Below are positions 9,601-48,477 of a stretch of 64,000 bases of DNA, piece after piece. Made by a program: the position numbers and the translations under genes. The stretch spans positions 1 to 64,000 of the IMG/VR virus record IMGVR_UViG_3300028840_002524; one strand, written 5' to 3'. Positions within the stretch are counted from its first letter, which is position 1. Each line of letters opens with the position of its first letter. Below the pieces are notes generated by a model. It was not told where the DNA came from. It was given only the letters and a program-made list of their open reading frames with translations, and searched no databases. The DNA is from a virus.

Positions 9601-12600
9601 CGCAAGACGTTCCCGAGCGAGCGTCAGATCAAGATCGCGGCCAAGCAGGCCGGGACCTCGTACGAGGACGCCTGGGTGATCGCCCGAGACTACTTCGCGT
9701 ACGCCATCCCCATCAACCAGATCATCAAGACGCATCCGGGCATGGCACCGGCGGAGGTCACCGGGGTGGTGGCCTACCTCCTGACCAAGTTCGAGCAGCC
9801 CACCGGGCACCGCAGGGAGGGCCTCGTGCACCTCTCGGCGGCCATCACCGAGGCGTGGTACGACGTGGAGCAGCGGTCCATCTCGCGCTGGCGTGAAGCC
9901 ACGGAGCGGATCGGCAACATGCTCAAGTCCAAGCAGACGGTGTACGCGATCACGGCCGCCCTGGATTCGGCTGCCGAGGACGCGGTGAAGGAGGCCCAGA
10001 CCCTCCGAGGGGCCGAGAAGGAGGCATTCCTCGACCTGGGCGCCCGCTACATCGCAATCGCCCAGACCCTCAAGGCGTCGAAGCCCTACGCGGACGCCAT
10101 GAAGGAGCTCCTCCAGGTGGAGGTGGCTCTCGATTTCCTGGAGGGGATGCTCACCGGCGAGGCCAAGAACGCCTTTGAACACCTCATCAAGGACGGGTAC
10201 GACACGGACCGCTTCGTGCCGGTCGTGGCCGTCGGCGAGGAGGTCGGGCAGGCTGGCCTGGGCTGGACCGACGGGGAGGCGACCCTCTGGGAATCCTACG
10301 TTGTCCACCGGGGAATCCTGGAAAGCAAGGAGTACCGCGACAAGGACGGCGTGGAATACGAGCAGTTCTCCGAGGGCGGGGACGTGTACGTGTTCAACCG
10401 GATCTTCCCGGGCAGCATCCAGATTTTCACGCCCCTGGGCGAGGAGATCAGGCCCGACACCTGCGGCGTGTGCGGAAGCACCCCGGCGGGGGAGATGTAC
10501 CACGGGCCGAAGCTGTGCGCCGACTGCCACGCGGTGGTCTCCGAGAAGATCAAAGCCGAGAAGGAGCCCCGGGAAGGGCTGCACACGGCGACGGCCAAGA
10601 AGTGGTGCGAGGAGGCCGGGGTAGGCAAACGCCGCAAAAGCGGCAAAGATCGCATCGAGAACATGGCCGACATTCTTTCCAAGGCCAAGGGCAAGTACGC
10701 CGAGGCGGTGAGCGAGCGCAGCGTCGTGGAAGTCATCGCTCGGCAGGTGGACAAGGGCAGGATCACGGCCGAGGTCGCCGAGCGGCTTCTCACCGAGGCC
10801 GAGCTGCCCACGGACGTGCCCCGGCGCATCCTGCTCCCGACCGAGCCGGTGGACCACGACTTCGAGACGGCCGAGGCCATCGAGGACTGGTTCGAGGACT
10901 GCCGGGAGACGTTCAGGTTCGACAGCCGGGAAGCCATGCCCCACGGCGTGGCCTACTTCGGCGAGAACGAGGTCGTGGTCGTGGCCTACGACCATCTCCT
11001 CTCGGAGGACGCCCGCGACGCGGTGATCCAGGCGGCCGATGCGCAGCGCGTATGGGACGGGCTCATTCCCGTCGGCGATGCCAGCACGCCGTTCCACTCT
11101 CTCCTCGTGCGGGAGGGGGAGGCCGATCTCGTGCGGGCCCAGGGATTCACGACGGAGCACCGCACCGACCTCGAAAAGCGTAGGCGCGTGCGGTTCATCC
11201 AGGCCGGGGTCGAGAACTTCGTGCCCGGGTCCGTCAAGACGGCATACCTCTCGGACGGGACCGAGATCACCTTCGGGACGCCGACGGCCGAGAAGGACGC
11301 CCTCCTTGCCAAGGCGTGGGAGGAGTTCGACGGGACCGTCAGCGGGAAGGACCCCCTCGAAGTCGAGGAGGGGCTTTTCCGCCACTACACCGGCGCCCCG
11401 AGCGGCCTGGGCGAGGCCGCCGACGCCGCTCTCCAGAAGGTCACAGCCCTGGACAACGCCACCGTGAGCGAGGCCCCGGCTCTGTGGGCCCGGCTCCAGA
11501 CGGAGGGAACCCGGGTTCAGTCGATCATCTTCCCGGCCGACAAGAACGAGAAGGAGGCGACGGAGGGGGCGTCGGCCCTCGGGTACACGCCCGTGGAGGT
11601 GGGGAAGGTGGAGCGGAACGTCCGTGTCGGCGTGCGCGAGCCCGTGGTCGGGGCGCCCACCAGGGCGCTCTCATTCGGAGAGGGGATCACCGTGATCCTC
11701 CAGGGGGCGCAGGAAAACACGGTCCGAGTCTACGACGATCCGTACGAACCGGAACGCCTCCTCCGGGAGATCGCCCTCCACAACCTCGTGGAAGGGGCCG
11801 ACAAGGTAGCCCCCATGGGGCCGCGATCCTGGGCCCTGGGCTATCCCGACAACAGCGCCTCCCTCCTCGTGTACTTCCCGAGGCACGGGATCGCCCGGAT
11901 GTTCACCCGGGAGGACCTGGGCATCCGGTTCGAGGGGGAACTCAGCGAGCAGGTCACGGGCATGCCGGTGGCGCCGCCCGAGACCGAGGCCGAGTCCATG
12001 GACCAGAAGCTCGACAGCATCGTGCGCAAGCTCGTGCTGAACGGCAGCCTCGACGCCCTCCAGGATGTGGCGTTCGACGATGACACGGGGTCCATTTACC
12101 TGTTCTTCTCGGCCGCCATCACGAGGGAGGAAGCCGAGGACATCACCCAGGACCTCGGCAACGAGTACCAGCAAACGCGGCTCGTGGCGTCGCCCGATCA
12201 GTCCCTCGACGGCGAGGTGGGAGAGTCCGATTGGTGGGTTGTGTTCGTGCCGGGCGAGGACGAAACGGGCGCCCCGGGCGAGCCCGACCCCACGCGGTGG
12301 GGCGCCACCAAGGTGCCCGAGCAACAACCGCAGGGCCTCTCCCAGTTCATGGACAAGGACGCGGTGCAGTCCATCGCCAAGGGTGTCAGCCTGGACAAGG
12401 CCATCGACGCCCTCACAACCGAGAGCCTCGCCGAGGTGGACTTCAATCCCCTCTCGTTCGCGCTGGCGTTCGCCGCGCACCACGGCCTCGACGAAACGTC
12501 CCTCGCCTCCTCTCCTCTCGCGCCGGGGACCGTGTTCCTGACGGTGAAGAACGAGGCGGGCACAATGAAGCGCGTTGACTTCTCAGCCCCGGGAGTGGGC

Positions 12601-12726
12601 GACGGGGTGAACGTGGTGGTCACCGATGCGGCCAACGGCCAGAAGGAAACGGTGGGCCACTTCAAGAACCCCACCCTGACCGAACTCCTTGGAAAGCTCG
12701 GAGACAACCCGGCATGGAAAGCGTAA
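667..12726 (+). CDS. Giant (4019 aa) multi-module putative internal head/cargo polyprotein
   Basis: Uninterrupted 12-kb ORF with high-GC codon bias. Contains Zn ribbons, an SH3-like module, an ART-like module (HIT...GF...GVS...EAEVF) and a P-loop kinase (GGPGSGKS), separated by Glu-Ser/Ala/Gly linkers. The true start codon is uncertain. Confidence 0.8.
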   Translation: MTRCQACGHPSVSLACTSCGTLAENENGPSLGGGWAPHPYDPVSGICFEMHGKHLLPGDEVRVQLKNGRKATGYVDYASTSKTLYLCKEHTRRTWKRGVWVQFKAEDIASVDIVKLSEGEERPYALTLRSESPVIADWIKEAPERTPGPQHAHENNSRAVTFPFRKGLESKLFRLFEEPIGLGCPYLYRLEPDGILIADVTEETITLWKTNDPGRYLGFDPRENILDHLQKMGKSGVVLLGRKDLRSTVGSDSRSIFENEPTPASVRQRRGGTYRTGGKAGPARTVVRGFRFQVGGKKARGRQAKNKEKQAAAKRVGKRGLARRISAAKKWHRSSRGAAYHRALGDYNRESMKLRSQGLSKRLFENGLDYFFGDPVLWALDSRSQGVRTVAAGDLISGHLSSTPMGVGVNPLGPTGIPDMSTHGENLAYGENSALGEEEWKPSRLGVIKPGMRVVSRVGWVGTVLKVVETSSNPYAVVKWDKTGSTGRHTVTTLHPVEEDMSTHGENSALSASQIREGDSPELLRAIDDFASGITRKKPGGMYGEYIRALGIAMMRGGSGPDAKAWWRADPKGFDPNYASWLQGEIEKLFKQHGQPVKKFTPVSESEDRSGESAGPRSESVAEGSDVVSAVQAAMVPTRPKRMRNPRTGKMGTLRVPREPSFVEDFRPEFPENHEMQRKLAGHITKGASEWREEKAPRVRLPSGWSVKRWTYWRRDFPETPMRKESQALLIAYQGKPVFTLDFQGRSPHALGVVKGSKVERHYGVVQDSTTEFLEDLRDTIEDAGSVGEAVDSVTSFTPVSESVSEAVDYEDPKYEDLVSFLQSAGREALQYPKDKWSSVYFKNVKAHHVAEIDFPAFNAAKRGVRGITKDMYDHALAGAFENLQDEIEGASSFEWGDKEGFIGRDPKTQDYRMFPVDESVSESVNEAVGRDAFHIWHITGASNAKAIQSGGFKPMPTSKGPGVSVAVHPAAARGLLRTAQRMFSFRTFEDMKAWFVEMGADPDDPKWGRVGNEGDPARAYVSAMSLFHPAVGGSATKIPRNEFLWADIGKNLHRQGPPFVAVEVIGSDMDFDAYSGYEALFDKLADAYKRFSPKSIEAEVFLDGRDIGIMNEVWDELYVDINKTPEKIRESLSEGGWWNPKEMSTEELQKELADIERDYGRNLTMSGGAVDRRRGTMINKMREIKRELQSRGVRTESEVMDIGFLQAKDPYTVKYAWKRRGPIKVVTVDGKRAAEEFLASVKRDGGNGMIVKGVKESEGPRSESVVAEEKYGVYRVYVRYGKYGDKKPVPYYLAGTPSSIRELFADPETAEYDEDDNKLMPYKMAWERPARSEESAVTEAKEYVLWGLPKGSKDQIDAKVLLSNGRSMRDIEKVKKLAGRDGWHTFRVQVIDLSKPFDAGAAFAGAVGEAVKGMKNLTFLLNKPEAPIEMRGRSKKGYMAVFKEGKHYKVAHVPTGLVASPPFRLQADAAALAVQIEEELGSKLDFPADRKPTDVLKRIADIVIEYRMGKPFGYWESDEDGVAPLFEGLFESYKAGWMKLTPAEKKTMIEVVRAQYKTRRNVPSQPYRDDYAPMRRAFGVPAALEHSGEELPDHYYEAFRWAWQMVQRGADPDKSIPGKIVYEGLSESGVTVRYMGGERRRGRGGLRGRSMGRGPASYPFEFDRGMEDVVSELRTYLKGKRFKTDNVDSLTFLVGRKGATAAVAWLKDKGVPIDYDLQDMSGPGEAKPFESIQEALPRGFSVEVVQSRKNPDWIKVSVEGDFRGERVYGETQPFHIGISKPTRRLVGQITQAAFKRGEYGKGVPMGLQGKLEAAVLDALEKHAVERGISYAHLEGLAEATRRPKKPRGTKTKKFVMYFPTEQDAIDYARAFGFKPGETREEKLGWTVDVRRGGPAMRSDFIYTEPNPDFETFLRAWVGEHHGPAMADRVADDYLRIFAGAKKPTPFEERQAASMKKLYKDQYGKEPGRVKAPKGSAAAARFRLPRGVRVPGGMYAVGLAAGPNKDYHRGSWNAEVYIPLTFEVVSTTDAAVDAVHRFTGKNDLGGSNFFEPNRPNGTRAARNDRAGIVFDSGGMAVGRVTYGGTFIPADSPGFMREGLEEAGKGRAQVIRGIQAELTKIMKDFERGKYKSQYDDVDAVDVHLQVLNGKWKVWVGEVPASERRKGYWTSEDSWYSVSDGESANDLKVTAEEMFYDLVGRYSGKFEESAPIAEFEPRLKLPADPTDRPRTYKPNRSEKSVIRRTVRDALAVTYFDSVNQAVSTVGDAIGRLGYQFDEPLSGRQPKRPGETGRVALHLQRMTNDPYWPLDLTTGPVQFTFYVMPNGKVEAVGYYTEGAEERPNPVVEGINDPHIFKAVFLAGGPGSGKSFIANQMFKGTGLKFLNSDLAFEHLLTKRDLPFDINPDNEEVYAKQMQARGRAKELTKLRRQLWLDGMLGLVVDGTGKDYDKIAKMATNLKGLGYDTSMVFVNTSLDVAHQRNKDRKRSVPADVVNDSWRQVQSNMGKFQAFFGSKNFKIVDNSKPLDKQGIQELGVNLRRAAMKMTDGPIENPVGQAIVNTLHKTGGKTMSDIANAQTEAAARMHGYLGTFIAEFRGLDSAALRVLLAETTVDAEVREIMELRKDLAKAEAEGDETKVAGIRYALGMAEAALEVAQGEEGLEAEEELQDMGVTFYKEGRPSTVMGPYPTVSAAMLAADRVYPVEIGEPWGDTIDSRQRRETVDGYVETMPWVTAEVLSVEPGVVMYHEGSVGASLDRGLLEGLRTRVRPVADPFLLPEGVTAAQKAVVKDLRKFFKKKKIKVRYKSLATQGPWVEVRVDQGKDFKPWLSGAELKNFPDDIRSTAVQVLGGAPGQLSYGNAQGNMIAMFPERWWDFLTRMGEKVTPVAESVGVMDLSGVQSILKGAGGKIEHAAEKLAELWVNAAGAVALFMSYAQKAGVTVEVARKAAGVLSGMTEAEIEEAMPSWGYTGGTPVGVPRTRGRKTFPSERQIKIAAKQAGTSYEDAWVIARDYFAYAIPINQIIKTHPGMAPAEVTGVVAYLLTKFEQPTGHRREGLVHLSAAITEAWYDVEQRSISRWREATERIGNMLKSKQTVYAITAALDSAAEDAVKEAQTLRGAEKEAFLDLGARYIAIAQTLKASKPYADAMKELLQVEVALDFLEGMLTGEAKNAFEHLIKDGYDTDRFVPVVAVGEEVGQAGLGWTDGEATLWESYVVHRGILESKEYRDKDGVEYEQFSEGGDVYVFNRIFPGSIQIFTPLGEEIRPDTCGVCGSTPAGEMYHGPKLCADCHAVVSEKIKAEKEPREGLHTATAKKWCEEAGVGKRRKSGKDRIENMADILSKAKGKYAEAVSERSVVEVIARQVDKGRITAEVAERLLTEAELPTDVPRRILLPTEPVDHDFETAEAIEDWFEDCRETFRFDSREAMPHGVAYFGENEVVVVAYDHLLSEDARDAVIQAADAQRVWDGLIPVGDASTPFHSLLVREGEADLVRAQGFTTEHRTDLEKRRRVRFIQAGVENFVPGSVKTAYLSDGTEITFGTPTAEKDALLAKAWEEFDGTVSGKDPLEVEEGLFRHYTGAPSGLGEAADAALQKVTALDNATVSEAPALWARLQTEGTRVQSIIFPADKNEKEATEGASALGYTPVEVGKVERNVRVGVREPVVGAPTRALSFGEGITVILQGAQENTVRVYDDPYEPERLLREIALHNLVEGADKVAPMGPRSWALGYPDNSASLLVYFPRHGIARMFTREDLGIRFEGELSEQVTGMPVAPPETEAESMDQKLDSIVRKLVLNGSLDALQDVAFDDDTGSIYLFFSAAITREEAEDITQDLGNEYQQTRLVASPDQSLDGEVGESDWWVVFVPGEDETGAPGEPDPTRWGATKVPEQQPQGLSQFMDKDAVQSIAKGVSLDKAIDALTTESLAEVDFNPLSFALAFAAHHGLDETSLASSPLAPGTVFLTVKNEAGTMKRVDFSAPGVGDGVNVVVTDAANGQKETVGHFKNPTLTELLGKLGDNPAWKA
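1408..1425 (-). promoter_or_regulatory. Reverse-orientation copy of the 18-bp palindrome with its AAAAATTGAACG flank, inside the giant ORF
   Basis: ACTGTCGGTAGCGACAGT followed by CGTTCAATTTTT. Confidence 0.6.
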
Positions 12727-14426
12727 GCAGGCGACTCTCGGCCCGGCGCATGGCTATGGCCGAACGGGTGCATATCCCCCTGGGGTCTCTGGGAGTCCCC
12801 AGGGACGATATGCCCCAGATACGGAGCGACCTTGTTCCCGAATTCCTGCGGTGGCTCACGGCGCAGCGCGTCCCCCACCGCCGAACGCGGGTTCAGGTGG
12901 ACAAGATCAAGGCCACGCAGCGCGAGATCGACATCGACAAGGTGGCCTCGATGGTGGCCTCCGCCCCAGAGAAATCTCTCGCCAAGCCCGTGATCATCTC
13001 AAAGGACTTCTACCTCCTCGACGGGCATCACCGGTGGCTCGCCCTCGTGAACAAGGACCCGGCCTACAAGATCGAGGCCGTCCAGGTCGGCATTCCCATC
13101 TGGAAGCTCCTCGCCTACGCCCGCGAGTTTCCGCAGGCTTCCTACAAGCAGATGGGCGAGGCCGAGGAGCAGAGCGTCTACAAAAAGCGCATGCACAAGG
13201 CGCTCAAGGGGTGGAAGAAGCTTTTCCCCGTCAAGAAGGAGGGCCACAGCACAGTCGGCACCCTCTACTTCGACACGCCCGAGGAGGCGCTCAAGTGGAA
13301 AGAGGATGCGGCCGCGTTCATCGAGCGCATCAAACCCATCGGGGCCACCGAGCGAGCGCCCCAGCTCGTGAAGAAATGGGAGATGCTCAAGGACGATTTC
13401 GAAAAGTGGGTGGGGTGGGAAGACCCTCGCCGCAACCTCTACTCTTTCGAGAAAGCGGCTCGTGACATCGCTTGGACGTTCTGGGATTACCGCAAGGAAC
13501 TCCTCGACGTGTTCATGTATCAGGTCGAGCCCATCGCCGGGCCTCTCGGGCAGTCGGAGCTCAAGGGCAAGCGCGAGATGACCGACGTGAAGCGCATTGG
13601 CCCGTTCCATCTCGGGATGGCGGCCTCCGGGCCCTGGGGGAAACCGCTCGAACCGGATGAGGAGATGATCGCCAATTACAAGCGCCTATCCGACCGGCTA
13701 CCGACCATCGTAGCGAAGCTCAAGCGCAACGGTCTCCTCCAATACATGAAGGGCGTGCGGTTCCGCGTCGAGGAGGCGAAGGGGGAGGCCGGGGCAACAT
13801 ACGACGCCGTGAACAGGATGGTCCACATCAAGAACCGGGCCGACGATCACGCCGTATACCACGAACTCGCCCACCACCTGGAGCACCTGCTGAGGAAGGG
13901 ACAGCTTCACGGCGGAGCACGGCCGTGGCGCGACTGGCGGTTCTGGTTCGAGGGCACTGACGCCAAGTTCACCAAGAAAGACTACGAGGCCGTCGGGATC
14001 CACCCGGGCGAGAATCGCCACATCGAGGGGCGTCTCAAGCGGGCGCAGGTTCCGCAGTACGTGAAAATGTTCGTCAAGGCCGTGCACTACGGCTACTACG
14101 CCGCCCGCTCCCCCGGCGCGGGATGGCGATACACGGATTACATCCCGGCCAAGCACATGGGGGAGGCCCTTCAAGGTCTCATCGGTCGGCCCATCAACAC
14201 GGGGATTCCCTCGGCCTACGGCCACGTGAACGCTGGCGAAGCGTTTTCCGAGACCATGGCCTACTTCATGCTCGGGAAGCTCAAGAAGGGCACCGGTCTG
14301 TGGATGCTCAAGCAGATATTCCCCACCCTCAAGGAGTCCGATGAAAAAGACAGCAAAGAAAAAGAGCGCATCGTCGAAGCGGCCGAGCGGCGCGTCAAGC
14401 ACAGGCGCGAAGCCGAGCGTTCCTGA
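12714..14426 (+). CDS. ParB/Srx-like N-terminal domain fused to a zincin-like (HExxH) metallopeptidase
   Basis: PVIISKDFYLLDGHHRW (ParB-like), VYHELAHHLE, and downstream SAYGHVNAGEAFSE carrying the third-ligand Glu. Start may be 12750 or 12756. Confidence 0.75.
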   Translation: MESVSRRLSARRMAMAERVHIPLGSLGVPRDDMPQIRSDLVPEFLRWLTAQRVPHRRTRVQVDKIKATQREIDIDKVASMVASAPEKSLAKPVIISKDFYLLDGHHRWLALVNKDPAYKIEAVQVGIPIWKLLAYAREFPQASYKQMGEAEEQSVYKKRMHKALKGWKKLFPVKKEGHSTVGTLYFDTPEEALKWKEDAAAFIERIKPIGATERAPQLVKKWEMLKDDFEKWVGWEDPRRNLYSFEKAARDIAWTFWDYRKELLDVFMYQVEPIAGPLGQSELKGKREMTDVKRIGPFHLGMAASGPWGKPLEPDEEMIANYKRLSDRLPTIVAKLKRNGLLQYMKGVRFRVEEAKGEAGATYDAVNRMVHIKNRADDHAVYHELAHHLEHLLRKGQLHGGARPWRDWRFWFEGTDAKFTKKDYEAVGIHPGENRHIEGRLKRAQVPQYVKMFVKAVHYGYYAARSPGAGWRYTDYIPAKHMGEALQGLIGRPINTGIPSAYGHVNAGEAFSETMAYFMLGKLKKGTGLWMLKQIFPTLKESDEKDSKEKERIVEAAERRVKHRREAERS

Positions 14427-15186
14427 GATTCATTCGAAGTCCAGGCTCGTGCCGGTCAAGTCGCTCAAGCCAAACGACTGGAACCCCAACGTCGTGCCCG
14501 ACGATATTCTCGTGTCCATCGTGGCCGGGATTCACAAGCACGGTTTCGTGGGCGCCGTCCTCGTGTGGAAGGGGCGCAACATCATCATCGACGGCGAGCA
14601 CCGCTGGATCGCCGCCAAGAAATCGGGCCTCACCAAGATCCCGATCATCGAACTCGAAGTGGATGAGGCACGAGCGCGGGAGCTCACCATTGCGTTCAAT
14701 CAGAAGCGTGGGTTCTTCGACCCCGACCGTCTGACCGACGTGGTGCAGTTCATCGCCGACAAGACCGACGCGGCCCGCAAGGACCTCCAGGTCATGCTCG
14801 GATTCTCGGCCAAGGAAATCGACGGGATGCTCCACGACGCAGCGAACGAGGCCGAGAAAGAGCTCTCCAAGAAGATCAAAGAGGAGGGAGGAAATCCCAA
14901 GGTCGAAACGCGGCCGCCCCCTCCTCCGCTTCCCCCGCCGCCCGGTGATCCCGAGGACGACGGCGGCGCAGCGGCCGCTGGCGACAGCGACTCCGCCCCC
15001 GGGTACGGCGACGGCGCTCCGACGGAGGAGAACCCAACGGGAAAATTCCCGTTCACGTTTTACGCCCCGTCCATGGACGACTACGAGCGGATGCGTGATC
15101 TCTTCTATTCAGACGGCGAGTTCTCGTTCTCGAAGCTAAACGAAATGCTGGAATCCGCCGTAGAGCATTCACAAGCCGCCGAGTAG
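14341..15186 (+). CDS. ParB-like nuclease-domain protein
   Basis: LKPNDWNPN...IIIDGEHRW motif; Pro-rich linker. Confidence 0.8.
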   Translation: MKKTAKKKSASSKRPSGASSTGAKPSVPEIHSKSRLVPVKSLKPNDWNPNVVPDDILVSIVAGIHKHGFVGAVLVWKGRNIIIDGEHRWIAAKKSGLTKIPIIELEVDEARARELTIAFNQKRGFFDPDRLTDVVQFIADKTDAARKDLQVMLGFSAKEIDGMLHDAANEAEKELSKKIKEEGGNPKVETRPPPPPLPPPPGDPEDDGGAAAAGDSDSAPGYGDGAPTEENPTGKFPFTFYAPSMDDYERMRDLFYSDGEFSFSKLNEMLESAVEHSQAAE

Positions 15187-15292: not shown

Positions 15293-15320
15293 ACTGAGAC
15301 CGGGATAAAAAAATTGAACG

Positions 15321-15338
15321 ACTGTCGCTACCGACAGT
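15321..15338 (+). promoter_or_regulatory. Copy of the 18-bp palindrome (operator-like) between the putative promoter and the RBS
   Basis: AAAAAAATTGAACG-ACTGTCGCTACCGACAGT, 30 bp upstream of the GTG start. Confidence 0.65.
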
Positions 15339-15367
15339 CGTGATTTTCTCCGAGTAGGAGGGCTCCC

Positions 15368-18300
15368 GTGCCTGGAAAAGCCACTCTTGCGTTTCGTCTT
15401 TACTGCTCGCTTGCCGCTTCACCGAAGCCCATTAGCGAGTTTACCCTCCTCAACAACACGGACCTTCTGACCGCCCTTCACGAGGCGGGTGCTCACCTCG
15501 AAGCGGATCTCTTCGACGCCCTGAGCGAGGACAGCAAAAGGTGGGTCCGGGACGTGGTTCTCCACATGGAGCCGTTCGACCTCAAGGAGGTCGATCTCAC
15601 CGGCAAAGTGGACTTCGACGAGTTCTGGTCCTTCCCGACCGACGAGGCGGCGCGGAGTTTCGCGTCGGGCCTCCCGGCCACGGTGGACAAGGCTGTTCGA
15701 AACAACCTCGTAGGATTCCGTGGGGTCCTGGATCAGCCCATCGAGCAGCGGGCGATCAAGGCGGGCGGCCAACTGTCCTCCTATCTGGAGTGGCACAGCG
15801 CCGTCAACGTGCAGGACACGCCTGCCCGTCCGATGGAAGCCGACATGAACTTCCCGGCGCGGCTGTGCGCCCGGTACGACCCCCGCGACGTGCGAACGCT
15901 CGCGGCCGAATACCCGGCCGATCACGTGATGCCGCAGCGCGAGAACTTCGCCAAGTTCGTCGAGGCCCTCGGCGCCATCGAGCCCCACGACGACTTCGAC
16001 CCCGTGCTGGAGCGGTTCGTCAAGGTGGCGTGGCCCTCCGAACTCATGGACAACCTCAAGGCCGCGATCCCTTCCACGGGCCTGAACTTCGAGGACCTAC
16101 GGGAGCAGGTGAGCTTCGTGGCGCGGCACCTACCGCGCACCCTCCTGTCCCTGAACCCTTCTGACCTTTCCTCCCACCTGGGCGAGCATCTCGCCCACGA
16201 GCTCGTGGAGTTCATCCACTGGGCGTTCCCGGGTGTTTCCGAAGAGGACCCCGACCCCGAGGGCGACGCCGACGCCGATGGCGAGCAGGAAGCCGACGCC
16301 GAGGGGGATGCGGAAAAGGCCAAGATGGGTGAGTCCGTGCAGATCGAGCCGAACTACGCCCTCGTGTACGTGAGCGGACGCGACGACGTGGCGAAGCTCG
16401 TGGGCCCCGCCATGGCCTCGAAGGAAATGAAAAACTGGACGGACGTGGACGGCCTGTCGAATTGGCTCATGTACGGCCACCGCATCCGCAACGTAGGCGT
16501 CATGCGGCCGAAAGACCTCGGCGGATACGCCATCTACATCCCCAAGAACCAGCTCTCCGACCTCAAGATGGTGTTCGGGGAACTCGGGATCGCGGAATCG
16601 AGCGTCCGGGTAGTGACCGCCGACGACGCCGCAAGCGTGGCGGAAGGGGGCGTCCGAGACACCCTCGGCCGGTGGTACCGCGTGATCAAAGAAGAGCTCT
16701 ACAACACCCTCATGGTCTCCGAAGCCGAGTACGCCCTGGCGTGGCTCGCGCACAAGGCGGGATTCCGCCCGGAGCCGTCCCTCGGCGAGTTCGGCCTCTC
16801 TTCGCAGCAGGCCGCCACCTCCCGCCGGGCAGCCGAGCGCATGCACGACAAGTACCCGGGTTTCGCCGGGGAAAGCGCGGGCGCCGTCAAGAGGCTCGCC
16901 AAGGTGCGGGCCCCTGCCCTCCAGGAGTACAAGCCCAGGAAGGGCAAACACACCCCGAAGCAGCGCAAGCACGGCGGCGGGAACTACGTGTTCCCTCCGA
17001 CCGAGAAGGACCCTTACGGCCGCTACCCCATGACCAACGCGGCCCAGGCCCGCAACGCCCTCGCCCGTGCCGGGGCCTGTGACGAGCAGTCCTCCTGGAT
17101 GAAAATCCGGGGAATCTCCTGCGCGGACCTCAAGAAGAAGGTCGCCAACGCCGCCAAGAAGGACTTCCCGTCCATCGAGGTAGGCGAGCGCGTGGGAGAA
17201 GCGTTCCTCGACAAAAACTGGGTCTCGTACCTGATCCCGGTGGGCGAAACCCCGGCCCTTCACAAGCAACTCCGCGCCATCAACAACAGCCAGATCGTTC
17301 CGAAGCTGGCAAAGAAAGCCCACATCCGCCCCGACATGATTTTCGGGGTAGAGACGCCGGTGGGGTTCCGCATCTTCGTGTACTCCGGGAACAAGGGCGG
17401 CGTCTTGGACATCTTGCAGCAGGCCGGGATCATGGACGCCTACGAAGGGCCATGCTCCCCTCCCGTCCAGGAAGCATATCCCGAGGGCGACACACCTCTG
17501 ACCTTCCTGTTCCGGGGCGTCTCGGCAGACCACGCCCGTGAGTGGGCCGAGGAATGGCAGGGCCTCGGGTACATCACCTCCTTCAACGTCTCTTCCTCCG
17601 GGAACGACACCACCGTCAGTATGATGGCCGGGAACCCGGGGCAGGTCCGGATCGCGGGGCTCATGCTCGGGAACTACATCGAGCCCGACGATCCCGCCTA
17701 CGGCACCCCTTCCGAGGGCGTAGAAGAGAGCCGGTCCTCCGCGCTCACGGCAGTGACCAACTACGCGGGGGTGATCAGCCGCACGGACGGAGAAGGGTAC
17801 GCCGACTTCGCCCACGCGATGGCCGACCACTACCTCTCCGGTGCCGCTCTTCCCGACCCGAAGCTCTGGGCACGGAAGTACGGCGACTTCGACCCCATCT
17901 GGGCCGACCTCGTGGGCGAGAAGGTCCGCGAGATCCTTTCGCAGCACGGCATCAACGTGCGCGAGAGCGTTTCCGAAGCCGTCATGAAGTCCATCGCCTA
18001 CATCGACCTCGACAAGAAGGAGGCGGATCGTCTTCGGGAAGCCTACGACAAGGCGAACCCGTGGGACCCCTCCTGGGGCGAGCAGTACACGATGGAATCC
18101 GACATCGTGGACCTCCTGAACAAGAACGGTCGCTTCGGCGACATGCGGGCGGAGTACGGCAAGGGCAGCGACCGCTACGCAATGCGGCTTTGGGTCGATC
18201 CGAGCCACGTGCGGCAGCTCTCGCGCCTCCTCTCGGCGGCCTACGGGCTGCGCGTGAAGGAAAGCACCGCTCTGGTGTTCGACTCCGAAGCGGTTCTCCA

Positions 18301-21300
18301 GTCCATCGCCGAGGGTGTGTTCGAACACCTGAACCGCCCTGTTTCTGTGTCCGTGGACGCCATAGGCGGGGGCATCCTGCGCGGGTTCGTCGAACCGACA
18401 GCCGCCCTGGAGCTCTTCGCCGAAGCCCTCACCCACTTGGGCGAGGGTACCGAGGTCGAGATCGACAAGAACGAGTCCATTTTCCGGGCCAAGGGACTCC
18501 CCGAGGGCCTCGGATGGGACACCCCCGGTGACCTATACCCGGCCGACGGACCGGAGGCCCTGGGCGAGGACAGCCTCTTCGCCCCCACGAAGGTCAAGCC
18601 CTCCGGGGAGACCGACAACCCGTCCAACCGGGCAGCGGCCTCCGCGAAAAAGGTCATGAGCAAGAACGGCCCCAAGAAGATGGCGAAGGACCCCAAGGAG
18701 GTGGGCCGGGGCGAGAAGGGGGACAAGGCCGGGGGCAAGAAGCCCAAGACCATCCCCCGCGACGCCAGCGGCGGCCCGGGTACCTCGGGCGAGTCCGATC
18801 CCTCCGCCGACTACACCAAGGCCACCGTCGGCGTGAAGGGCAGTCTCTTCACCGTCCTGGGCAAGAAGAAGGGCGAGAAGGGTCCCCAGGCAAAGGGAGG
18901 CGAGGCCAAGGGCAAGGTCGTGACGCCCGGCGTCGCCATCAAGTCCTTCGAGTGCACCTGCCCCCACTGCTCGAACAGCGTCAAGGAGAACGTGCTCAAG
19001 CGGTTCGCCCCGGCGCTCCTGGAGCAGGACCCGGTGGCCGGGGGCGGCGCGACGGCCGTATCCCCCGCCAACGACCGGCCCGGCAACATCGAGGCCCCTC
19101 CCGGAGCGGCCTCCACTCCTCCGAAGAGCGAGCCCGCCAAGGAGCCCGAGAAGCCCACGGAGGCCGACCCGACGAAACGTCAGGACGACGAGGAAGAGGG
19201 CGGTCCGACCCAGGGTCTCGTGTGCCCCTTCTGCGGGAAGGAAATCCCCCGCGACGTGCTCAAGGGCATGATGGGCGAACTCCTCGCCCAACTCGCGGCC
19301 CAGCTCCAGCAGGGCTCGACCAAGCCCGAGGAGCCCGAGGAAGAAAAGCCCGAGGATGAGGAAGAGGAGGAAGAGGAAACCCCGGAAGAGGAGCCCGCTC
19401 CCGAGCCCGAACCCGAGCAGCAACCGGCCCAGGCCCCGGCGGGCGAGACACCCCCGGCAGCCCCCATGGCCCCCGCAGCTCCGGGCAAGCCCAAGGAGTC
19501 CATCGAAGAGCGCGGACGGACGGACTTCGTGCAGCAGTTCATGGGCTTCGACATCACCTACTACAACGCCCGGCAAGGCTTCGAGGCCAACAGCGCCGAG
19601 GAGCTCCAGGACGCCATCGAGGCGCGGTATCCCGGCTCGTTCCGGGGCTACGTCCTCGACGCCGTGCGCTCTCTCATCGTCAAGGTGCCGGTGAAGCAGG
19701 CCGACAAGTTCGACCAGATGCTTCGGCAGCAACTCCTCAAGGTCAAGTCACCCTCGGTTATCTCCTCCTCGGTCCAGACCAAGGACGGCGAGCCCGTCGT
19801 GGAGACGGAGCAGGAGCCCGGGGAGCCGGTGATCGAGGCGGGAGGCTCTGGAATGGGTCGATTTCGGCAGGGAGCGCCCGTTAGGGGGACCGACAGCCTC
19901 AGCGTGGGTGACCTGCTTGTGAACGTGAGCAAGCAATTCGGCGCTGTGAACGTCGCTAGGGTTACCGATGTGGGTGGAATCGGCGGCGTTGTGACGGCCA
20001 TCTTCGTGGACCCGAACAATCCGTCGAAGAAACGGATGCCGTCGGACCGCGAGTTCGCCATCCACGACTTCGACACGAGCGACTACTTCTTCGCCGAAGG
20101 CGTCGAGTCCGAGGAGCCCATCGCCGTGGGCGAGATCGGGGTGGACAACGACGGAATCCCGGCCGGTGTCCGGGTCCGGGTCCTCGACAGCCACCGGGGG
20201 AAAGCCAAGGTGGACGCCGGGGGCCGCGTGATCGACGTGGCCGCCGAGGATGTTCTCGTGTACCCCTCGGGGTCCACAATCGAGGAGTGCCTCGCGGCCC
20301 TCGAAAGGGGCGAGTCCCTGGGGGCCGTCGCCATGCGGCGCCTCACCTCCAGGACCAAGGCCGTGCGCCTTGCGGCCCTGGGCGAGACCACCGAAGGATC
20401 TTCCGGGAAGTACCTCAGCATGTACTTCCCCAACGTCGAAGCGTGCCACAAGGCCAAGGCCGCCGTGGGCGCCCTGGGGAGCAAGATCACCGACGGCACC
20501 GAGGTATCTTTCGCCGTCGAGCCCCTGAACGGGGAGAGCACCCGGCTGCGCACCATCGCCGAGCAGCTCGGCGGCGCGGTTCTCCGGACGATCACCCCTC
20601 CGGGGCCGGTCGCGGAACAGCTCGACATCGACACCGACAGCACCGACCTGGGCGAGGTGAACAACCTTTTCCAGGGCGCTCTCGCGGACATCAAGGGGGC
20701 TCGTGACCTCCTGATCAAGGCCCAGACCGGAGACATGGCCCGCGCCGTGGCCCTCCTCAAGAGCATGGGGGCCAAGGAAAAGGTCATGAACGCCCTCCAG
20801 GGCGTGGCCGACTCCATCGAGGAGCACGGCACCAACCTCAAGGAGACCCTCGGGGCCCTCGACAAGGCCCACGACGTGTTCTCCAAGGCATACCCGGACG
20901 CCCCCAACGGGGCCCCGGAAGAGGAGCCCGCTCCCGAGAACGGCGAGATGCCACCGGCCGAAGAGCCCGCCCCCGAGAACGGGAACGGCGAGCCCATGCC
21001 GGTCGAAGAGCCTCCGGTGGAGGCGCCCCCGGCCGAGGAGCAGCCGCCCCCGGCGGTCTCCCCGCGCCCCGTCGAGTCCATGAACAAAATCCTGGGCGAG
21101 ATGCGCAGGTCGGCCCACTGGCCGCTGATCCGGTACGCTCTCTCCGAGGACGATTTCCAGACGTTCGGGAACTTCATGCGTTCCATCTCTCCCAAGATCA
21201 CGGCCCACGAGGTTTCCGCCGTGTTCGAGACCATCCAGGAAGTCACGGAGATGGACATGGCCCTCGAATCCGGGATCGTTCACGGAGCGCATTTCCTCGC

Positions 21301-21517
21301 CAAGAGCGACGTGGAAATGCCGGGGGAGATCACGGGACCGACCATGGCGGGGCAGGAGAAGCCGCGCCTCATCGGTGGGCAGACCGTTCGGGTCAAAGGC
21401 GTGTACTTCGGAGAGGACGGGAAACTCCGGGTGAACCTGGACGAACCCATCGAGATGACGGTGTACGCCGACGACATGATGACCGCCATCCAGAGCGGCC
21501 AGCTCGTGGCCGACTGA
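15368..21517 (+). CDS. Second large (2049 aa) multi-module putative head core/cargo polyprotein
   Basis: GGAGG RBS before GTG. Modules are separated by VRESVSEA, VGEA and VAEG-type linkers. Contains acidic and Pro-rich stretches plus CPHC and CPFC pairs, and shares a module with the 4019-aa protein. Confidence 0.8.
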   Translation: MPGKATLAFRLYCSLAASPKPISEFTLLNNTDLLTALHEAGAHLEADLFDALSEDSKRWVRDVVLHMEPFDLKEVDLTGKVDFDEFWSFPTDEAARSFASGLPATVDKAVRNNLVGFRGVLDQPIEQRAIKAGGQLSSYLEWHSAVNVQDTPARPMEADMNFPARLCARYDPRDVRTLAAEYPADHVMPQRENFAKFVEALGAIEPHDDFDPVLERFVKVAWPSELMDNLKAAIPSTGLNFEDLREQVSFVARHLPRTLLSLNPSDLSSHLGEHLAHELVEFIHWAFPGVSEEDPDPEGDADADGEQEADAEGDAEKAKMGESVQIEPNYALVYVSGRDDVAKLVGPAMASKEMKNWTDVDGLSNWLMYGHRIRNVGVMRPKDLGGYAIYIPKNQLSDLKMVFGELGIAESSVRVVTADDAASVAEGGVRDTLGRWYRVIKEELYNTLMVSEAEYALAWLAHKAGFRPEPSLGEFGLSSQQAATSRRAAERMHDKYPGFAGESAGAVKRLAKVRAPALQEYKPRKGKHTPKQRKHGGGNYVFPPTEKDPYGRYPMTNAAQARNALARAGACDEQSSWMKIRGISCADLKKKVANAAKKDFPSIEVGERVGEAFLDKNWVSYLIPVGETPALHKQLRAINNSQIVPKLAKKAHIRPDMIFGVETPVGFRIFVYSGNKGGVLDILQQAGIMDAYEGPCSPPVQEAYPEGDTPLTFLFRGVSADHAREWAEEWQGLGYITSFNVSSSGNDTTVSMMAGNPGQVRIAGLMLGNYIEPDDPAYGTPSEGVEESRSSALTAVTNYAGVISRTDGEGYADFAHAMADHYLSGAALPDPKLWARKYGDFDPIWADLVGEKVREILSQHGINVRESVSEAVMKSIAYIDLDKKEADRLREAYDKANPWDPSWGEQYTMESDIVDLLNKNGRFGDMRAEYGKGSDRYAMRLWVDPSHVRQLSRLLSAAYGLRVKESTALVFDSEAVLQSIAEGVFEHLNRPVSVSVDAIGGGILRGFVEPTAALELFAEALTHLGEGTEVEIDKNESIFRAKGLPEGLGWDTPGDLYPADGPEALGEDSLFAPTKVKPSGETDNPSNRAAASAKKVMSKNGPKKMAKDPKEVGRGEKGDKAGGKKPKTIPRDASGGPGTSGESDPSADYTKATVGVKGSLFTVLGKKKGEKGPQAKGGEAKGKVVTPGVAIKSFECTCPHCSNSVKENVLKRFAPALLEQDPVAGGGATAVSPANDRPGNIEAPPGAASTPPKSEPAKEPEKPTEADPTKRQDDEEEGGPTQGLVCPFCGKEIPRDVLKGMMGELLAQLAAQLQQGSTKPEEPEEEKPEDEEEEEEETPEEEPAPEPEPEQQPAQAPAGETPPAAPMAPAAPGKPKESIEERGRTDFVQQFMGFDITYYNARQGFEANSAEELQDAIEARYPGSFRGYVLDAVRSLIVKVPVKQADKFDQMLRQQLLKVKSPSVISSSVQTKDGEPVVETEQEPGEPVIEAGGSGMGRFRQGAPVRGTDSLSVGDLLVNVSKQFGAVNVARVTDVGGIGGVVTAIFVDPNNPSKKRMPSDREFAIHDFDTSDYFFAEGVESEEPIAVGEIGVDNDGIPAGVRVRVLDSHRGKAKVDAGGRVIDVAAEDVLVYPSGSTIEECLAALERGESLGAVAMRRLTSRTKAVRLAALGETTEGSSGKYLSMYFPNVEACHKAKAAVGALGSKITDGTEVSFAVEPLNGESTRLRTIAEQLGGAVLRTITPPGPVAEQLDIDTDSTDLGEVNNLFQGALADIKGARDLLIKAQTGDMARAVALLKSMGAKEKVMNALQGVADSIEEHGTNLKETLGALDKAHDVFSKAYPDAPNGAPEEEPAPENGEMPPAEEPAPENGNGEPMPVEEPPVEAPPAEEQPPPAVSPRPVESMNKILGEMRRSAHWPLIRYALSEDDFQTFGNFMRSISPKITAHEVSAVFETIQEVTEMDMALESGIVHGAHFLAKSDVEMPGEITGPTMAGQEKPRLIGGQTVRVKGVYFGEDGKLRVNLDEPIEMTVYADDMMTAIQSGQLVAD

Positions 21518-23961: not shown

Positions 23962-24339
23962 ATGACCAAACTCAAGCTTCCGGACATCCGGGACCTCGAC
24001 GTAGTGGGCCTCCACTACGAGCCCGGCCGGGGGCGCGAAACGGTGGTCATTCAGATTCCTTCGGAGGAAGGGGCGAGCACGTACAGGATCAACCTTCGGG
24101 AACCGGAGGAATACCAGTACATCGCCCGTCTGCCCAACGGGCGGAGGATTATCGACATTCTTCGGATCGAGGGTCACCTCGCGGTGAGACCACGAACCGG
24201 TGAGTTTTTGAAACTGGAGGATTCCGATGCCGCGTCTGCTGACGGATTCAATGCCTCTGTCGTTCAAGCTCTTGGAGCGTTCCGAGCAGGCAGACGGCCG
24301 CGTCCGCGTCCGTGGGAGATTTCAACACTGCGACCTTAA
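23962..24339 (+). CDS. Hypothetical protein
   Basis: Starts just after the previous stop; 3' end overlaps the protease gene by about 110 nt. Confidence 0.5.
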   Translation: MTKLKLPDIRDLDVVGLHYEPGRGRETVVIQIPSEEGASTYRINLREPEEYQYIARLPNGRRIIDILRIEGHLAVRPRTGEFLKLEDSDAASADGFNASVVQALGAFRAGRRPRPRPWEISTLRP

Positions 24340-26515
24340 AAACCGGAACGGTCGCGTGTATCCCCGCCGCGTGTGGGAACAGCACCTCACGAACGATGCC
24401 GACTTCATGAAGTCGATTCGGGAGGGGAAGGTGTTCGGCCACCTGGAGCACCCGGATGACGGGCGCTCGAACCTCAACCTCGCCGCCATCAAGATCGAGA
24501 ACCTGTCCATGACCTCGGAGGGCGAGGTGGTCGGCGAGCTGACCACCCTGTCCACCAGGGCGGGCAAGACGGCGGCCTCGCTGTTCAACGACGGCCTCAA
24601 GATCGGCATCTCCTCCCGGGGCCACGGCTCCGTGCAGAAGAACACCGAGGGGATCGACGAGGTGCAGGAGGATTTCATCCCCGAGGCGTTCGACCTCGTG
24701 GCCGAGCCCTCCACACCGGGCGCCGATCTCGTGAAGGAGGCGTTCGAGAGCGTTGCTCCCGTGGCCGCCCTCACCGAGGGGAAGATTCCCCAGGACGTGC
24801 GGGAGCGTGTCCGGACGGAGAACGAGCTGGCAATGCTCAACTCCAGGCTCGAAACAATGGAGCGCCTCAAGGAAGCCAAGAAGGTCACCCGCGTGACGAT
24901 CCACGAGGCGAGCGATCTCCTCTACGACCTGCACCGCAAGTTCAAGTCCGAGCTGAACGCGGCCGACTTCGTGAACCTGGAGGAGCGCATCGTGGCCGTG
25001 AAGGAGTTCTCCCGGGCCTCGTTCCCGGAGGACGATGACATCTCCATGGGGAGTTCCATGTACAGGGATGAGGAGGACGACGATCTCGACATGGACCCCG
25101 ACGACATGCCCGACGAAACCGAGTGCGGCGCCATGCGTCCCGAGATGCGCGGCCGGGTACGCTCCTACGGCGAGATGGGCGACGAGTGGACCGACGCCGA
25201 GGAGGACGACTACGACGATATGCCCGACGACATGGACGCCGACGCCTACGAGCGCGTGATCCGGTCCAGGTGGCAGCGCAACGTCCGCGAGCGCCGGGAG
25301 GCCGCCAAGAGGATCATCCTGGGTGAGATGGCCGACGAGGCCGCCGCCCGCGAGCTCGTGATCTTCATCGAGAACGACGGCGATCTCTACCGGCAGCAAC
25401 ATACGCCCATCAACAAGAACCTCATCACCAAGATGGCCCGGGGAATGTACGATTCCCGCAAGGCCGCCAAGCTTTTCGGGTACCTCGTGGACGCGGCAGC
25501 GAAGAAGTACGCCAAGGAGATGGGTTCGGGGATGCCGTGGCACAAGATGTTCGACAAGCAGACCAGGAACATGGCCGCCGTGGAACTCACAGGCACGTTC
25601 GAGGCGGAAGCCAAGGACGGAGAATTCAGCCACCTCCTGCCCAAGAAGTACGCGGGCTTCGTGCCCGAGGGCCGTAGGCGCGTACGCGAGCAGGCCACGG
25701 CCGACCTGTCCCACAGGGTCGAGGTGACCATCGACCTCACGGACCTCTCCCCGGAGCAGCGCGAGAAGTTCGACGTTTTCCGCCCTGGCGAGTCGCTCGA
25801 AACCATGGCGACCGTCGTAAAGGCGGGGCTCCCCGAGGACCTCGGCGTCACGGAGTGCGAGGGCAGGTGGCTCGACGGCGACAAAATCTGCATCGAGCTG
25901 GGCTTCACCGGCAACCCCAAGTCTCTCGCCAAGTCCGTCTCCGAGGTGATGGGCCAGAAGGTCAAGCTGGAGTCCATCACGGACGGCCGCGACCCGGGTG
26001 CCCCCATCGGGTTCACGCCCGAGGTGGTGAACCTGATCCAGGGACTCCGCGACCGCTTCCGGGCCGTATCCAGCCGGTGCGAGAAGCTGGAGACCGAGAA
26101 CCAGCGCCTCCGCGACCTGGGCGACGCCATGACCGAGCTTCACCGCCGGGAGGCGCTCCAGCGTAGGCAGGAGGAAATCCTCAAGGAACACCCGGCCCTC
26201 CAGGCCGCCCTCCCCGAGCTGAACAAGGCCCGGACGGTGGAAGAGCTGGAAGAAAAGGCGGGGGTGTTCCTGGGAATCCAGGGTCAGAACATCAATTTCC
26301 GCAAGCCCGAGGAGGACGGCGGAAAGCCCAAGAAGGACAAGAAAACCGAAGGCGCACCCAGTCACGGGAGCACCGGCGTGCAAAACGGCGTTCCTCGCCC
26401 GGGAGAGCTGGGCGGGGGCACCACCGTCACCGACGGGAACGCTCGCACCAAGGGTTCCGTGGAGGAGGGGAAGACCACGACATCGCGGCTTTCCCGACAC
26501 TACCGCACCCGCTGA
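24227..26515 (+). CDS. Prohead protease (T4 gp21-like) fused to acidic and coiled-coil scaffold-like regions
   Basis: KNRNGRVYP, GHLEHP, GISSRGHGS and FDLVAEPS are the gp21-family signature motifs; GGAGG RBS; directly upstream of the capsid gene. Confidence 0.92.
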   Translation: MPRLLTDSMPLSFKLLERSEQADGRVRVRGRFQHCDLKNRNGRVYPRRVWEQHLTNDADFMKSIREGKVFGHLEHPDDGRSNLNLAAIKIENLSMTSEGEVVGELTTLSTRAGKTAASLFNDGLKIGISSRGHGSVQKNTEGIDEVQEDFIPEAFDLVAEPSTPGADLVKEAFESVAPVAALTEGKIPQDVRERVRTENELAMLNSRLETMERLKEAKKVTRVTIHEASDLLYDLHRKFKSELNAADFVNLEERIVAVKEFSRASFPEDDDISMGSSMYRDEEDDDLDMDPDDMPDETECGAMRPEMRGRVRSYGEMGDEWTDAEEDDYDDMPDDMDADAYERVIRSRWQRNVRERREAAKRIILGEMADEAAARELVIFIENDGDLYRQQHTPINKNLITKMARGMYDSRKAAKLFGYLVDAAAKKYAKEMGSGMPWHKMFDKQTRNMAAVELTGTFEAEAKDGEFSHLLPKKYAGFVPEGRRRVREQATADLSHRVEVTIDLTDLSPEQREKFDVFRPGESLETMATVVKAGLPEDLGVTECEGRWLDGDKICIELGFTGNPKSLAKSVSEVMGQKVKLESITDGRDPGAPIGFTPEVVNLIQGLRDRFRAVSSRCEKLETENQRLRDLGDAMTELHRREALQRRQEEILKEHPALQAALPELNKARTVEELEEKAGVFLGIQGQNINFRKPEEDGGKPKKDKKTEGAPSHGSTGVQNGVPRPGELGGGTTVTDGNARTKGSVEEGKTTTSRLSRHYRTR

Positions 26516-48320: not shown

Positions 48321-48477
48321 CATCATGGTCCATGGGAAGCAGCCCTACGAGTCGTGGGCTGCGATGACCTCTTGGCAGCGTGAGGATTTCGTGGCTCGGC
48401 TCGCGGACAAGTTCCGCGAGGAGAAAGCGAGACACGATGACGCGATGAGGAAAGCGCGTAGTGGCCGACGCGGTTGA
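48274..48477 (+). CDS. Small chaperone extension ORF, probably reached by frameshift
   Basis: LENL...FDIMVH...MTSWQRE resembles the small ORF after gp26 in T4-like phages; in the +1 frame. Confidence 0.55.
   Translation: MRFVPDLENLRRQRFDIMVHGKQPYESWAAMTSWQREDFVARLADKFREEKARHDDAMRKARSGRRG

Follow-up and report, generated by a model that had tools for sequence, protein, structure and literature searches.

A 2049-residue multi-module protein encoded upstream of the prohead protease gene of an uncultured myovirus is a candidate head-packaged, protease-cut precursor

The ORF2049 gene and its modules

The IMG/VR virus record IMGVR_UViG_3300028840_002524 is a linear viral contig of 116 kb with 64% G+C, and we analysed its first 64 kb (positions 1 to 64,000, hereafter the window), in which a giant open reading frame (ORF), ORF2049, lies 2.7-5 kb upstream of the genes for the prohead protease and the major capsid protein. 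The phage is a myovirus: it has a sheath gene at 43799-46807 and a tape measure gene at 48461-50443, and another part of the genome encodes a T4-type portal. Its capsid protein shares at most 29% identity with that of any cultured phage. The product of ORF2049 is a chain of modules whose linkers carry a hydrophobic-x-Glu motif followed by Ser, Ala or Gly (Phi-x-E/S/A/G, where the slash after E marks the putative scissile bond between the P1 Glu and the P1' residue). Our favored reading, to which we assign a rough probability of 0.55, is that this product is a head-packaged multi-module precursor cut by the prohead protease, and that it forms one system with a second giant ORF of the window, ORF4019. 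The gene and its immediate signals are as follows.

15318..15341 (+), terminator-like hairpin with a 10-bp stem and a T-run, between a ParB-like gene and ORF2049
15354..15359 (+), AGGAGG ribosome-binding site, 8 nt 5' of the ORF2049 GTG
15368..21517 (+), ORF2049, GTG start, 2049 amino acids (aa), 221 kDa, isoelectric point (pI) 4.9, multi-module with Phi-x-E/S/A/G linkers

The G+C content at third codon positions of ORF2049 is 0.87. An identical protein is encoded on a longer contig of 139 kb. The whole protein has no match in Pfam or PHROGs (E <= 0.1 or 0.01), the gene has none among 50,697 phage records searched with blastn and tblastn, and the protein lacks an HExxH motif. A tape measure identity was rejected, as the tape measure gene is the one at 48461-50443 and ORF2049 lies upstream of the head genes. 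Two homologues were found, and two only. The first, P0003, is a 2481-aa protein of a sister phage (IMGVR_UViG_3300017991_000005, locus L001), collinear with ORF2049 (P0001) apart from insertions and replaced segments. The second, P0026, is an 1886-aa protein (L005:2046-7703) from the contig IMGVR_UViG_3300033153_016035, which is of lower GC, and it shares with ORF2049 only the N-terminal roughly 80 residues and a C-terminal module; the protease encoded downstream of it is 59% identical to that of the ORF2049 phage. The position of a giant gene upstream of the protease gene is conserved in three phages. The middle of P0026 consists of very long acidic and Pro-rich spacers and Lys-rich helical segments.

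A preliminary description made from the sequence had read ORF2049 as a polyprotein punctuated by a recurring linker code, and every string that it quoted (MGES, IAES, VAEG, VGERVGEA, VQEA, SEGVEES, VRESVSEA, VKES, PKESIEE, VIEA, FAEGVES and PVES) is found in the ORF2049 translation. The other features that it had described are present too: acidic and Pro-rich spacers, a tract rich in Lys and Gly, and a pair of CxxC knuckles, namely CPHC (aa 1198-1201) and CPFC (aa 1286-1289). The modules that we delimit are listed below, with predicted local distance difference test (pLDDT) scores and VIA-align structure matches where these helped to set the limits.

15368..16333 (+), N-terminal region aa 1-290, acidic spacer aa 287-318 and site KMGE/S (P1 Glu 322); low pLDDT at 270-326
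16334..16645 (+), alpha/beta module aa 323-426, pLDDT 93-97, ending at VAE/G in linker 421-430; VIA-align matches 325-426 and 328-425
16646..16864 (+), helical module aa 427-499, ending at AGE/S; variable in P0003
16865..17200 (+), module aa 500-611 with core 541-606, pLDDT 89-96, ending at VGE/RVGE/A in linker 607-616
17201..17473 (+), module aa 612-702, ending at VQE/A in linker 690-706
17474..17728 (+), ferredoxin-like module aa 703-787, pLDDT 83-90, ending at PSE/GVEE/S; matches beta-alpha-beta sandwiches at Z 7.6
17729..17977 (+), module aa 788-870, paralogue of ORF4019 aa 524-599, ending at VRE/SVSE/A
17978..18262 (+), module aa 871-965, ending at VKE/S in linker 966-971; a different cassette in P0003
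18263..18445 (+), module aa 966-1026, ending at LGE/G; 62-aa insertion in P0003
18446..19498 (+), low-complexity block aa 1027-1377 with a Lys/Gly-rich basic tract, NPSNRAA and an acidic/Pro spacer, ending at KPKE/S
18959-18970 (+), CPHC knuckle within the low-complexity block
19223-19234 (+), CPFC knuckle within the low-complexity block
19499..20110 (+), module aa 1378-1490 and variable region aa 1491-1581, with VIE/A and FAE/GVE/S in predicted coil (pLDDT 35)
20111..21076 (+), C-terminal module aa about 1587-1845 and Pro-rich spacer aa 1843-1900, ending at RPVE/S
21077..21514 (+), C-terminal domain aa 1904-2049, about 70% identical to P0003

The N-terminal region is 53% identical to that of P0003, and its residues 8-77 match P0026. 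It is conserved in all three homologues, is followed there by a spacer and a site, and resembles no N-terminus of the other head-module proteins; it is a candidate targeting region or propeptide. At the other end, the C-terminal module 1587-1845 is likewise common to all three homologues (27% identity to P0026, E 5e-16). Between the two, the VQE/A site is kept as VWE/A in P0003 while the module that it closes (612-702) is not itself conserved there. The low-complexity block with its Lys/Gly tract and CPxC knuckles is 72% identical in P0003; tract and knuckles are both absent from P0026. Of the split zinc site proposed in the preliminary description, then, both knuckles exist, but their conservation is limited to the close homologue. 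The tract and the two knuckles may bind DNA.

When aa 1-1200 were searched with HMMER against 1.84 billion representatives, relatives were obtained for module 500-611 only. These are mostly stand-alone proteins of 100-126 aa and are weakly DUF6582-like: the module query itself gave no match to DUF6582 (PF20223), and three of its relatives reach 17.6-23.2 bits against a cut-off of 27.3. Among the ferredoxin-like modules of ORF2049, no paralogy is detectable by sequence.

Two short repeated elements were seen along the chain. An exact 26-nt direct repeat (19380..19405 (+) and 20913-20938) encodes PEEEPAPE in two Pro/Glu-rich spacers, which suggests that spacers of ORF2049 have been duplicated or homogenised by recombination. 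The heptapeptide NPSNRAA (18617-18640, aa 1084-1090) occurs once in ORF2049 and twice in P0003 (L001 10913 and 13928), where one copy falls in that protein's first acidic spacer. We rejected it as a common targeting motif, as it is confined to the ORF2049 protein family and found nowhere else in the genome.

Placement of the sites between predicted domains

Residues 1-1030 were modelled with AlphaFold on an alignment of 16 rows, which was deep for one module only. The resulting model (mean pLDDT 57.8) contains confident domains at 330-420 (pLDDT 93-97), 541-606 (89-96) and 707-764 (83-90) and domains of moderate confidence at 431-500, 617-689 and 874-965, with low-confidence linkers between them. 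Each of the five short linkers (421-430, 607-616, 690-706, 868-873 and 966-971) contains or abuts a site, in order VAE/G, VGE/RVGE/A, VQE/A, VRE/SVSE/A and VKE/S. The probability of this placement is about 1e-4 when compared with random positions and 0.007-0.009 when compared with random Glu residues, and in a scan of all twenty residues at the P1 position, Glu alone reached five linkers out of five. Structure matches found with VIA-align, which is blind to the motif, give the same units (325-426, 426-498, 615-688, 706-772 and 874-971). The matches are generic ferredoxin-like, ACT or RNA recognition motif (RRM)-like alpha/beta sandwiches with Z of 5.4-7.6, and as such they supply domain limits and no functional clue.

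The long spacers follow a rule of their own. All three long acidic/Pro-rich spacers of ORF2049 are followed by xE/S and a hydrophobic residue (KMGE/SV, KPKE/SI and RPVE/SM), and across the three homologues a spacer is followed by a site in 6 of 10 cases where 1.8 are expected (P 0.003, a post hoc figure computed on positions that are partly homologous). Some sites fall within predicted helices (E452, E891, E982 and E1019) and have probably arisen by chance, in keeping with an excess over background of no more than about 7-8 sites. A Foldseek search of the 1030-residue model against PDB and BFVD returned spurious whole-chain rows only, with template modeling (TM) scores below 0.1, and ESM Atlas gave no usable result for the N- and C-terminal parts of ORF2049.

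Cassette exchange between the giant genes

The second giant gene of the window is listed here, as its modules bear directly on those of ORF2049.

667..12726 (+), ORF4019, 4019 aa, same motif and strongly enriched in it, modules shared with the ORF2049 family

One case of exchange lies at the double site VRE/SVSE/A, which is kept as VRE/GLGE/A in P0003 although its flanks are only about 30% identical. Immediately after this double site, P0003 aa 1048-1108 are 51% identical (E 2e-17) to ORF4019 aa 1340-1399, and the homology between the two cassettes starts precisely at the P1 Glu and the P1' Ala (E/AKEYALW and E/AKEYVLW). The cassette occupies the slot that is filled in ORF2049 by module 871-965. 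The module just upstream of the double site has a paralogue in the same genome, ORF2049 aa 793-866 being similar to ORF4019 aa 524-599 (BLASTP E 5e-4, phmmer E 2e-6) and bounded by sites in both proteins. Two clean insertions in P0003 also have a site at either end: one of 62 aa is flanked by LGE/A and ASE/S, and one of 86 aa begins after KPKE/S and ends at VRVE/S. Gain, loss and replacement of modules at the linkers, which had been proposed as a check on the polyprotein reading, are thus seen when P0003 and ORF2049 are compared, and the homologues are not collinear single-fold proteins, as modules have been swapped between the giant ORF families at sites. The results fit the suggested multi-gene system, in that ORF4019 and ORF2049 carry the same motif in their linkers and share modules.

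The two giant ORFs also have the heptapeptide ESVSEAV in common, with a probability of 0.034 for one shared 7-mer arising between them by chance. Because its codons differ at six of the seven positions, the heptapeptide indicates selection on the peptide, and a recent DNA copy was rejected as its origin.

Motif counts

We counted the motif [VILMF]xE[SAG] in ORF2049 and in shuffled versions of it. There are 19 instances, with 12.1 expected from the shuffles (z 2.1, P 0.03), and 25 with 15.3 expected when Pro is also permitted at P3, the third residue before the bond (z 2.6). Shuffling restricted to 60-residue windows gives a z of 2.4, and the same motif with Asp in place of Glu shows no excess (8 observed, 8.4 expected). 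Per 100 aa, the density in ORF2049 is 0.93, compared with 0.50 elsewhere in the genome and 0.44 for tail and baseplate genes; the remaining proteome likewise stands above its own shuffles (144 vs 116 sites). ORF4019 has 47 instances where 20 are expected (z 6.5). Among 49 class patterns, the motif ranks first in ORF4019 and about second to fourth in ORF2049. Double sites spaced i,i+4 number 7 in ORF4019 (0.1 expected) and 1-2 in ORF2049 (P 0.07 and 0.02), with 0-1 in the other 28,860 residues of the genome. When the context around all Glu residues was examined one position at a time, no signal was found, the acidic tracts being dominant. What exceeds chance in ORF2049 is the location of the sites together with the i,i+4 double sites, rather than density.

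Outside the giant ORFs, the strongest excess for a single gene is in a 206-aa protein (42451-43071 (+)), with 3 Phi-x-E-[SA] sites where 0.1-0.4 are expected (z 4.6-8.4). It may be a further substrate of the protease.

The prohead protease and the capsid protein

24227..26515 (+), prohead protease, 762 aa, S77 domain at aa 15-220, then Phi-x-E sites, an acidic tract and a coiled coil
26556..28019 (+), Gp23-type major capsid protein, propeptide with ITE/S, PFE/A, VNE/S and LDE/T (aa 86-89) before the Gp23 core

The preliminary description had supposed that one protease processes both giant proteins. The genomic part of that idea holds, in that the phage encodes a T4-type (S77) prohead protease whose relatives cleave after Glu. 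The assignment comes from both Pfam (PF03420, E 1.1e-14, 54.8 bits with a cut-off of 27) and PHROGs (phrog_207, E 2.6e-38). In phage T4, Alt is cleaved after Glu at ITE-6 and LTE-619 (PMC5694885); in SPN3US, gp245 cleaves at A-X-E, prefers Ser at P1' and makes several cuts in long propeptides (PMC10052503); the capsid protein of phage P1 is cleaved at E120/S121 (PMC9024508). The same kind of motif is found in the capsid propeptide here, where LDE/T is invariant in the three phages, and behind the protease domain itself, where VKE/AFE/S...LTE/G is followed by an Asp-rich acidic tract and the coiled coil. From its sequence, this C-terminal extension of the protease suggests autoprocessing and a built-in scaffold. 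A similarly long protease (705 aa) is encoded by the cultured Pseudomonas phage QdP_Psa3, which has no giant ORF upstream of it.

Neighboring genes

12714..14426 (+), ParB-like (DGHHRW) and HELAH zincin protein, 570 aa, with the architecture of phage P1 DdrB

ParB-like genes lie at 12714-14426, 14341-15186 and 29445-30317. The first of them encodes a 570-aa protein with an N-terminal DGHHRW motif and HELAH at aa 383, and this pairing of a ParB-like domain and a zincin is the architecture of DdrB, a head-packaged protein of phage P1 (PMC5512222). The 570-aa protein starts with MESVS and ends with LKE/S and IVE/A sites. ORF4019, upstream of it, includes a zeta-toxin-like kinase module, and long spacers are almost absent from it. 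Between ORF2049 and the protease gene there are five small unannotated genes. Directly after the capsid gene, a gene at 28345-29448 (+) encodes the motif CxxxCxxC (CGHSCLYC), which is typical of radical S-adenosylmethionine enzymes; the third ParB-like gene comes next.

Discussion

The modular build, the sites in the linkers, the exchange of cassettes at sites and the protease gene are observed here; packaging, cleavage and ejection of ORF2049, and the roles of its modules, are what we infer. The 221-kDa precursor would be packed into the prohead, probably targeted there by the conserved N-terminal region. The S77 prohead protease would then cut after Glu at roughly 8-14 of the Phi-x-E/S/A/G sites, both in the linkers that join modules of 6-13 kDa and where the long acidic/Pro-rich spacers end, yielding about a dozen pieces. 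The predicted products include several ferredoxin-like alpha/beta modules, the DUF6582-like module, the basic Lys/Gly-rich segment with its zinc knuckles, and two larger C-terminal domains. Like the internal proteins of T4 and the Dar proteins of phage P1, they would remain inside the head until they exit together with the DNA, and after cutting they would be small enough for passage through the tail. Since each module would be self-contained and bounded by cut sites, modules could be inserted, lost or exchanged between ORF2049 and ORF4019 with their neighbors unharmed. The context of ParB-like and DdrB-like genes, by its resemblance to the head-packaged Dar system of phage P1, supports such an assignment.

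We also advance, more tentatively and at rather less than even odds, the stronger proposal of a true capsid-cargo polyprotein. On this proposal, one or two giant precursors, each with a single targeting region, would be diced into at least a dozen modules of 6-13 kDa that leave via the tail, and the linkers would serve as neutral junctions for the movement of cassettes between giant genes and between phages.

Several observations weigh against a cleaved precursor. The overall density of the motif in ORF2049 is marginally above chance (z about 2), and per Glu residue the rate of 0.10 does not differ significantly from the 0.071 in the rest of the genome (Fisher P 0.09), while P0003 and P0026 show no enrichment (17 vs 14.1 and 14 vs 11.8). 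The elevated density claimed in the preliminary description therefore survives as a weak excess over shuffles that is not significant in the per-Glu rate and is absent from the homologues, and the simpler explanation that Glu content alone accounts for it comes close to sufficing in the case of ORF2049. The site Glu residues are no better conserved than Glu residues at large (64% vs 62%), 9 of 25 sites are strictly conserved, and indel edges, all counted together, show no significant proximity to sites (P 0.25 and 0.08). The structural side has its own weaknesses, namely the shallow alignment behind the model and the result for aa 1378-2049, where a prediction from 3 sequences reached a pLDDT of 35 and gave rough secondary structure only. 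No effector function is recognised in any ORF2049 module by Pfam or PHROGs, and the phage is uncultured and known from metagenomic contigs only. ORF2049 on its own is a weaker case than ORF4019.

These points lend themselves to other explanations. The most serious of them, although we consider it unlikely, has the large ORF2049 product packaged whole, or trimmed near its termini only, as a head-internal or ejected protein, with the internal motifs being mostly uncut linker or helix-cap composition. In the trimmed variant, an N-terminal propeptide would be lost (e.g., at KMGE/S), perhaps along with a C-terminal piece, much as in DarB of phage P1, the virion RNA polymerase of N4 and the ejection proteins of SPN3US. 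A density barely above background, and not raised in the homologues, is what one would expect of such a protein; known precedents are mostly cut near their termini (PMC10052503, PMC9024508), and the best-conserved arrangements of spacer plus site are near both protein ends in all three homologues. What terminal trimming leaves unexplained is the presence of Glu sites in every short inter-domain linker, an effect specific to Glu, as well as the conserved double site and the start of cassette homology exactly at P1/P1'. Coincidental linker composition is also invoked by the reading of ORF2049 as an intracellular multi-domain protein that never enters the virion. The protein has no structural-protein homology, and its gene has a terminator-like hairpin upstream and a separate start, both of which would suit that reading; we nevertheless regard it as decidedly improbable, since the position upstream of the protease gene is conserved in three phages, modules are held in common with the strongly motif-enriched ORF4019, and the placement statistics speak against coincidence.

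The other two explanations accept that ORF2049 is cut and differ in the fate of the pieces or in the enzyme. As a component of the prohead core or scaffold, it would be degraded and its pieces would exit before DNA packaging, like T4 gp22, gp67 and gp68. The pI of 4.9, the long acidic spacers and the location just upstream of the head-assembly genes agree with this, as do predicted products of mostly 6-13 kDa, given that the core proteins of T4 end up as short fragments after cleavage (PMC5694885). However, the acidic and coiled-coil C-terminal extension of the protease can already supply a scaffold function, folded domains of 9-12 kDa would be unlikely to escape via pores in the shell, and rapid turnover of cassettes along with modules shared with the kinase-bearing ORF4019 are better suited to conflict cargo, which makes a scaffold role quite unlikely. 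Of the two roles left side by side in the preliminary description, cargo or core scaffold, it is thus cargo that we favor. Cutting by the neighboring ParB-zincin in place of the prohead protease would amount to processing of the metallopeptidase (MPTase) type. The 570-aa neighbor does contain HExxH and is built like phage P1 DdrB, and MPTase domains have been proposed by Iyer et al. to process polyvalent proteins (PMC5512222). Even so, the specificity documented for S77-type prohead proteases is Glu at P1 and a small residue at P1', and the motif recurs in the propeptide of the capsid protein and behind the protease domain, so that we hold the zincin to be a very improbable agent.

The reading of ORF2049 as a packaged precursor cut by the prohead protease has partial parallels in known systems. 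It shares with the T4 system of internal proteins IPI-III, Alt and the protease gp21 an S77 prohead protease, a Gp23-type capsid protein, candidate hydrophobic-x-Glu sites and the logic of release by the maturation protease. The T4 substrates, though, are single proteins that lose a targeting peptide of 10-20 residues (Alt also loses a C-terminal piece), whereas ORF2049 is one chain of 2049 aa that would be cut between about a dozen modules, with no short N-terminal targeting peptide in evidence. In phiKZ, 201phi2-1 and SPN3US (gp175/gp245), cleavage after Glu (S/A/G-X-E or A-X-E) affects many head proteins, Ser being favored at P1', long propeptides have several cut sites, and the protease has a C-terminal propeptide. 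In those phages the P3 residue is small and the cuts are concentrated in N-terminal propeptides of 111-254 residues, whereas in ORF2049 P3 is hydrophobic and the sites lie between folded modules all along the chain; ORF2049 has no sequence homology to the ejection and inner-body proteins of these phages.

The Dar system of phage P1 (DarB of 250 kDa, DdrB, DarA and Hdf) likewise has very large proteins, there packed in the head, near ParB-like and zincin (DdrB-like) genes, and the P1 capsid protein is cut at E/S. Its cargo is targeted by the N-terminus, a role for which the N-terminal region of ORF2049 is a candidate. DarB has methyltransferase and helicase domains, which ORF2049 lacks (no Pfam match), and our literature search found no report of DarB being cut into modules. 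The polyvalent proteins of Iyer et al. (2017) resemble ORF2049 in their long, mosaic, fast-changing modules, their late-gene, head-associated context and their ParB-like neighbors. They are defined by recognisable conflict domains and a built-in MPTase, the enzyme proposed to process them, and ORF2049 has neither; in its case the capsid protease would act at motifs in the linkers. ORF4019 resembles ORF2049 in having the same motif, the same style of double site (ESVSEAV), one paralogous module and a cassette that is found also in P0003, the sister phage's homologue of ORF2049. ORF2049 differs from ORF4019 in being weakly enriched in the motif, in its long acidic/Pro-rich spacers and in having no recognisable enzyme. 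Our literature search found no described giant chain with S77-type sites between many folded modules, and no described movement of cassettes between two such giant genes.

If the cleavage is true, prohead-protease processing would extend from the trimming of propeptides to the dicing of a multi-module polyprotein, and phages would have an equivalent of RNA-virus polyproteins. The evolution of very large cargo genes through cassette exchange would likewise be accounted for, because with each module bounded by cut sites the identity of its neighbors becomes irrelevant. The combination of an S77 protease with Phi-x-E/S in the linkers of giant ORFs near head genes would offer a sequence rule by which metagenomes could be searched for phage proteins that are delivered, and the arrangement points to a natural way of bringing several small proteins into a capsid by means of a single precursor. 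The modules themselves would then be a pool of candidate early-acting or anti-defence proteins.

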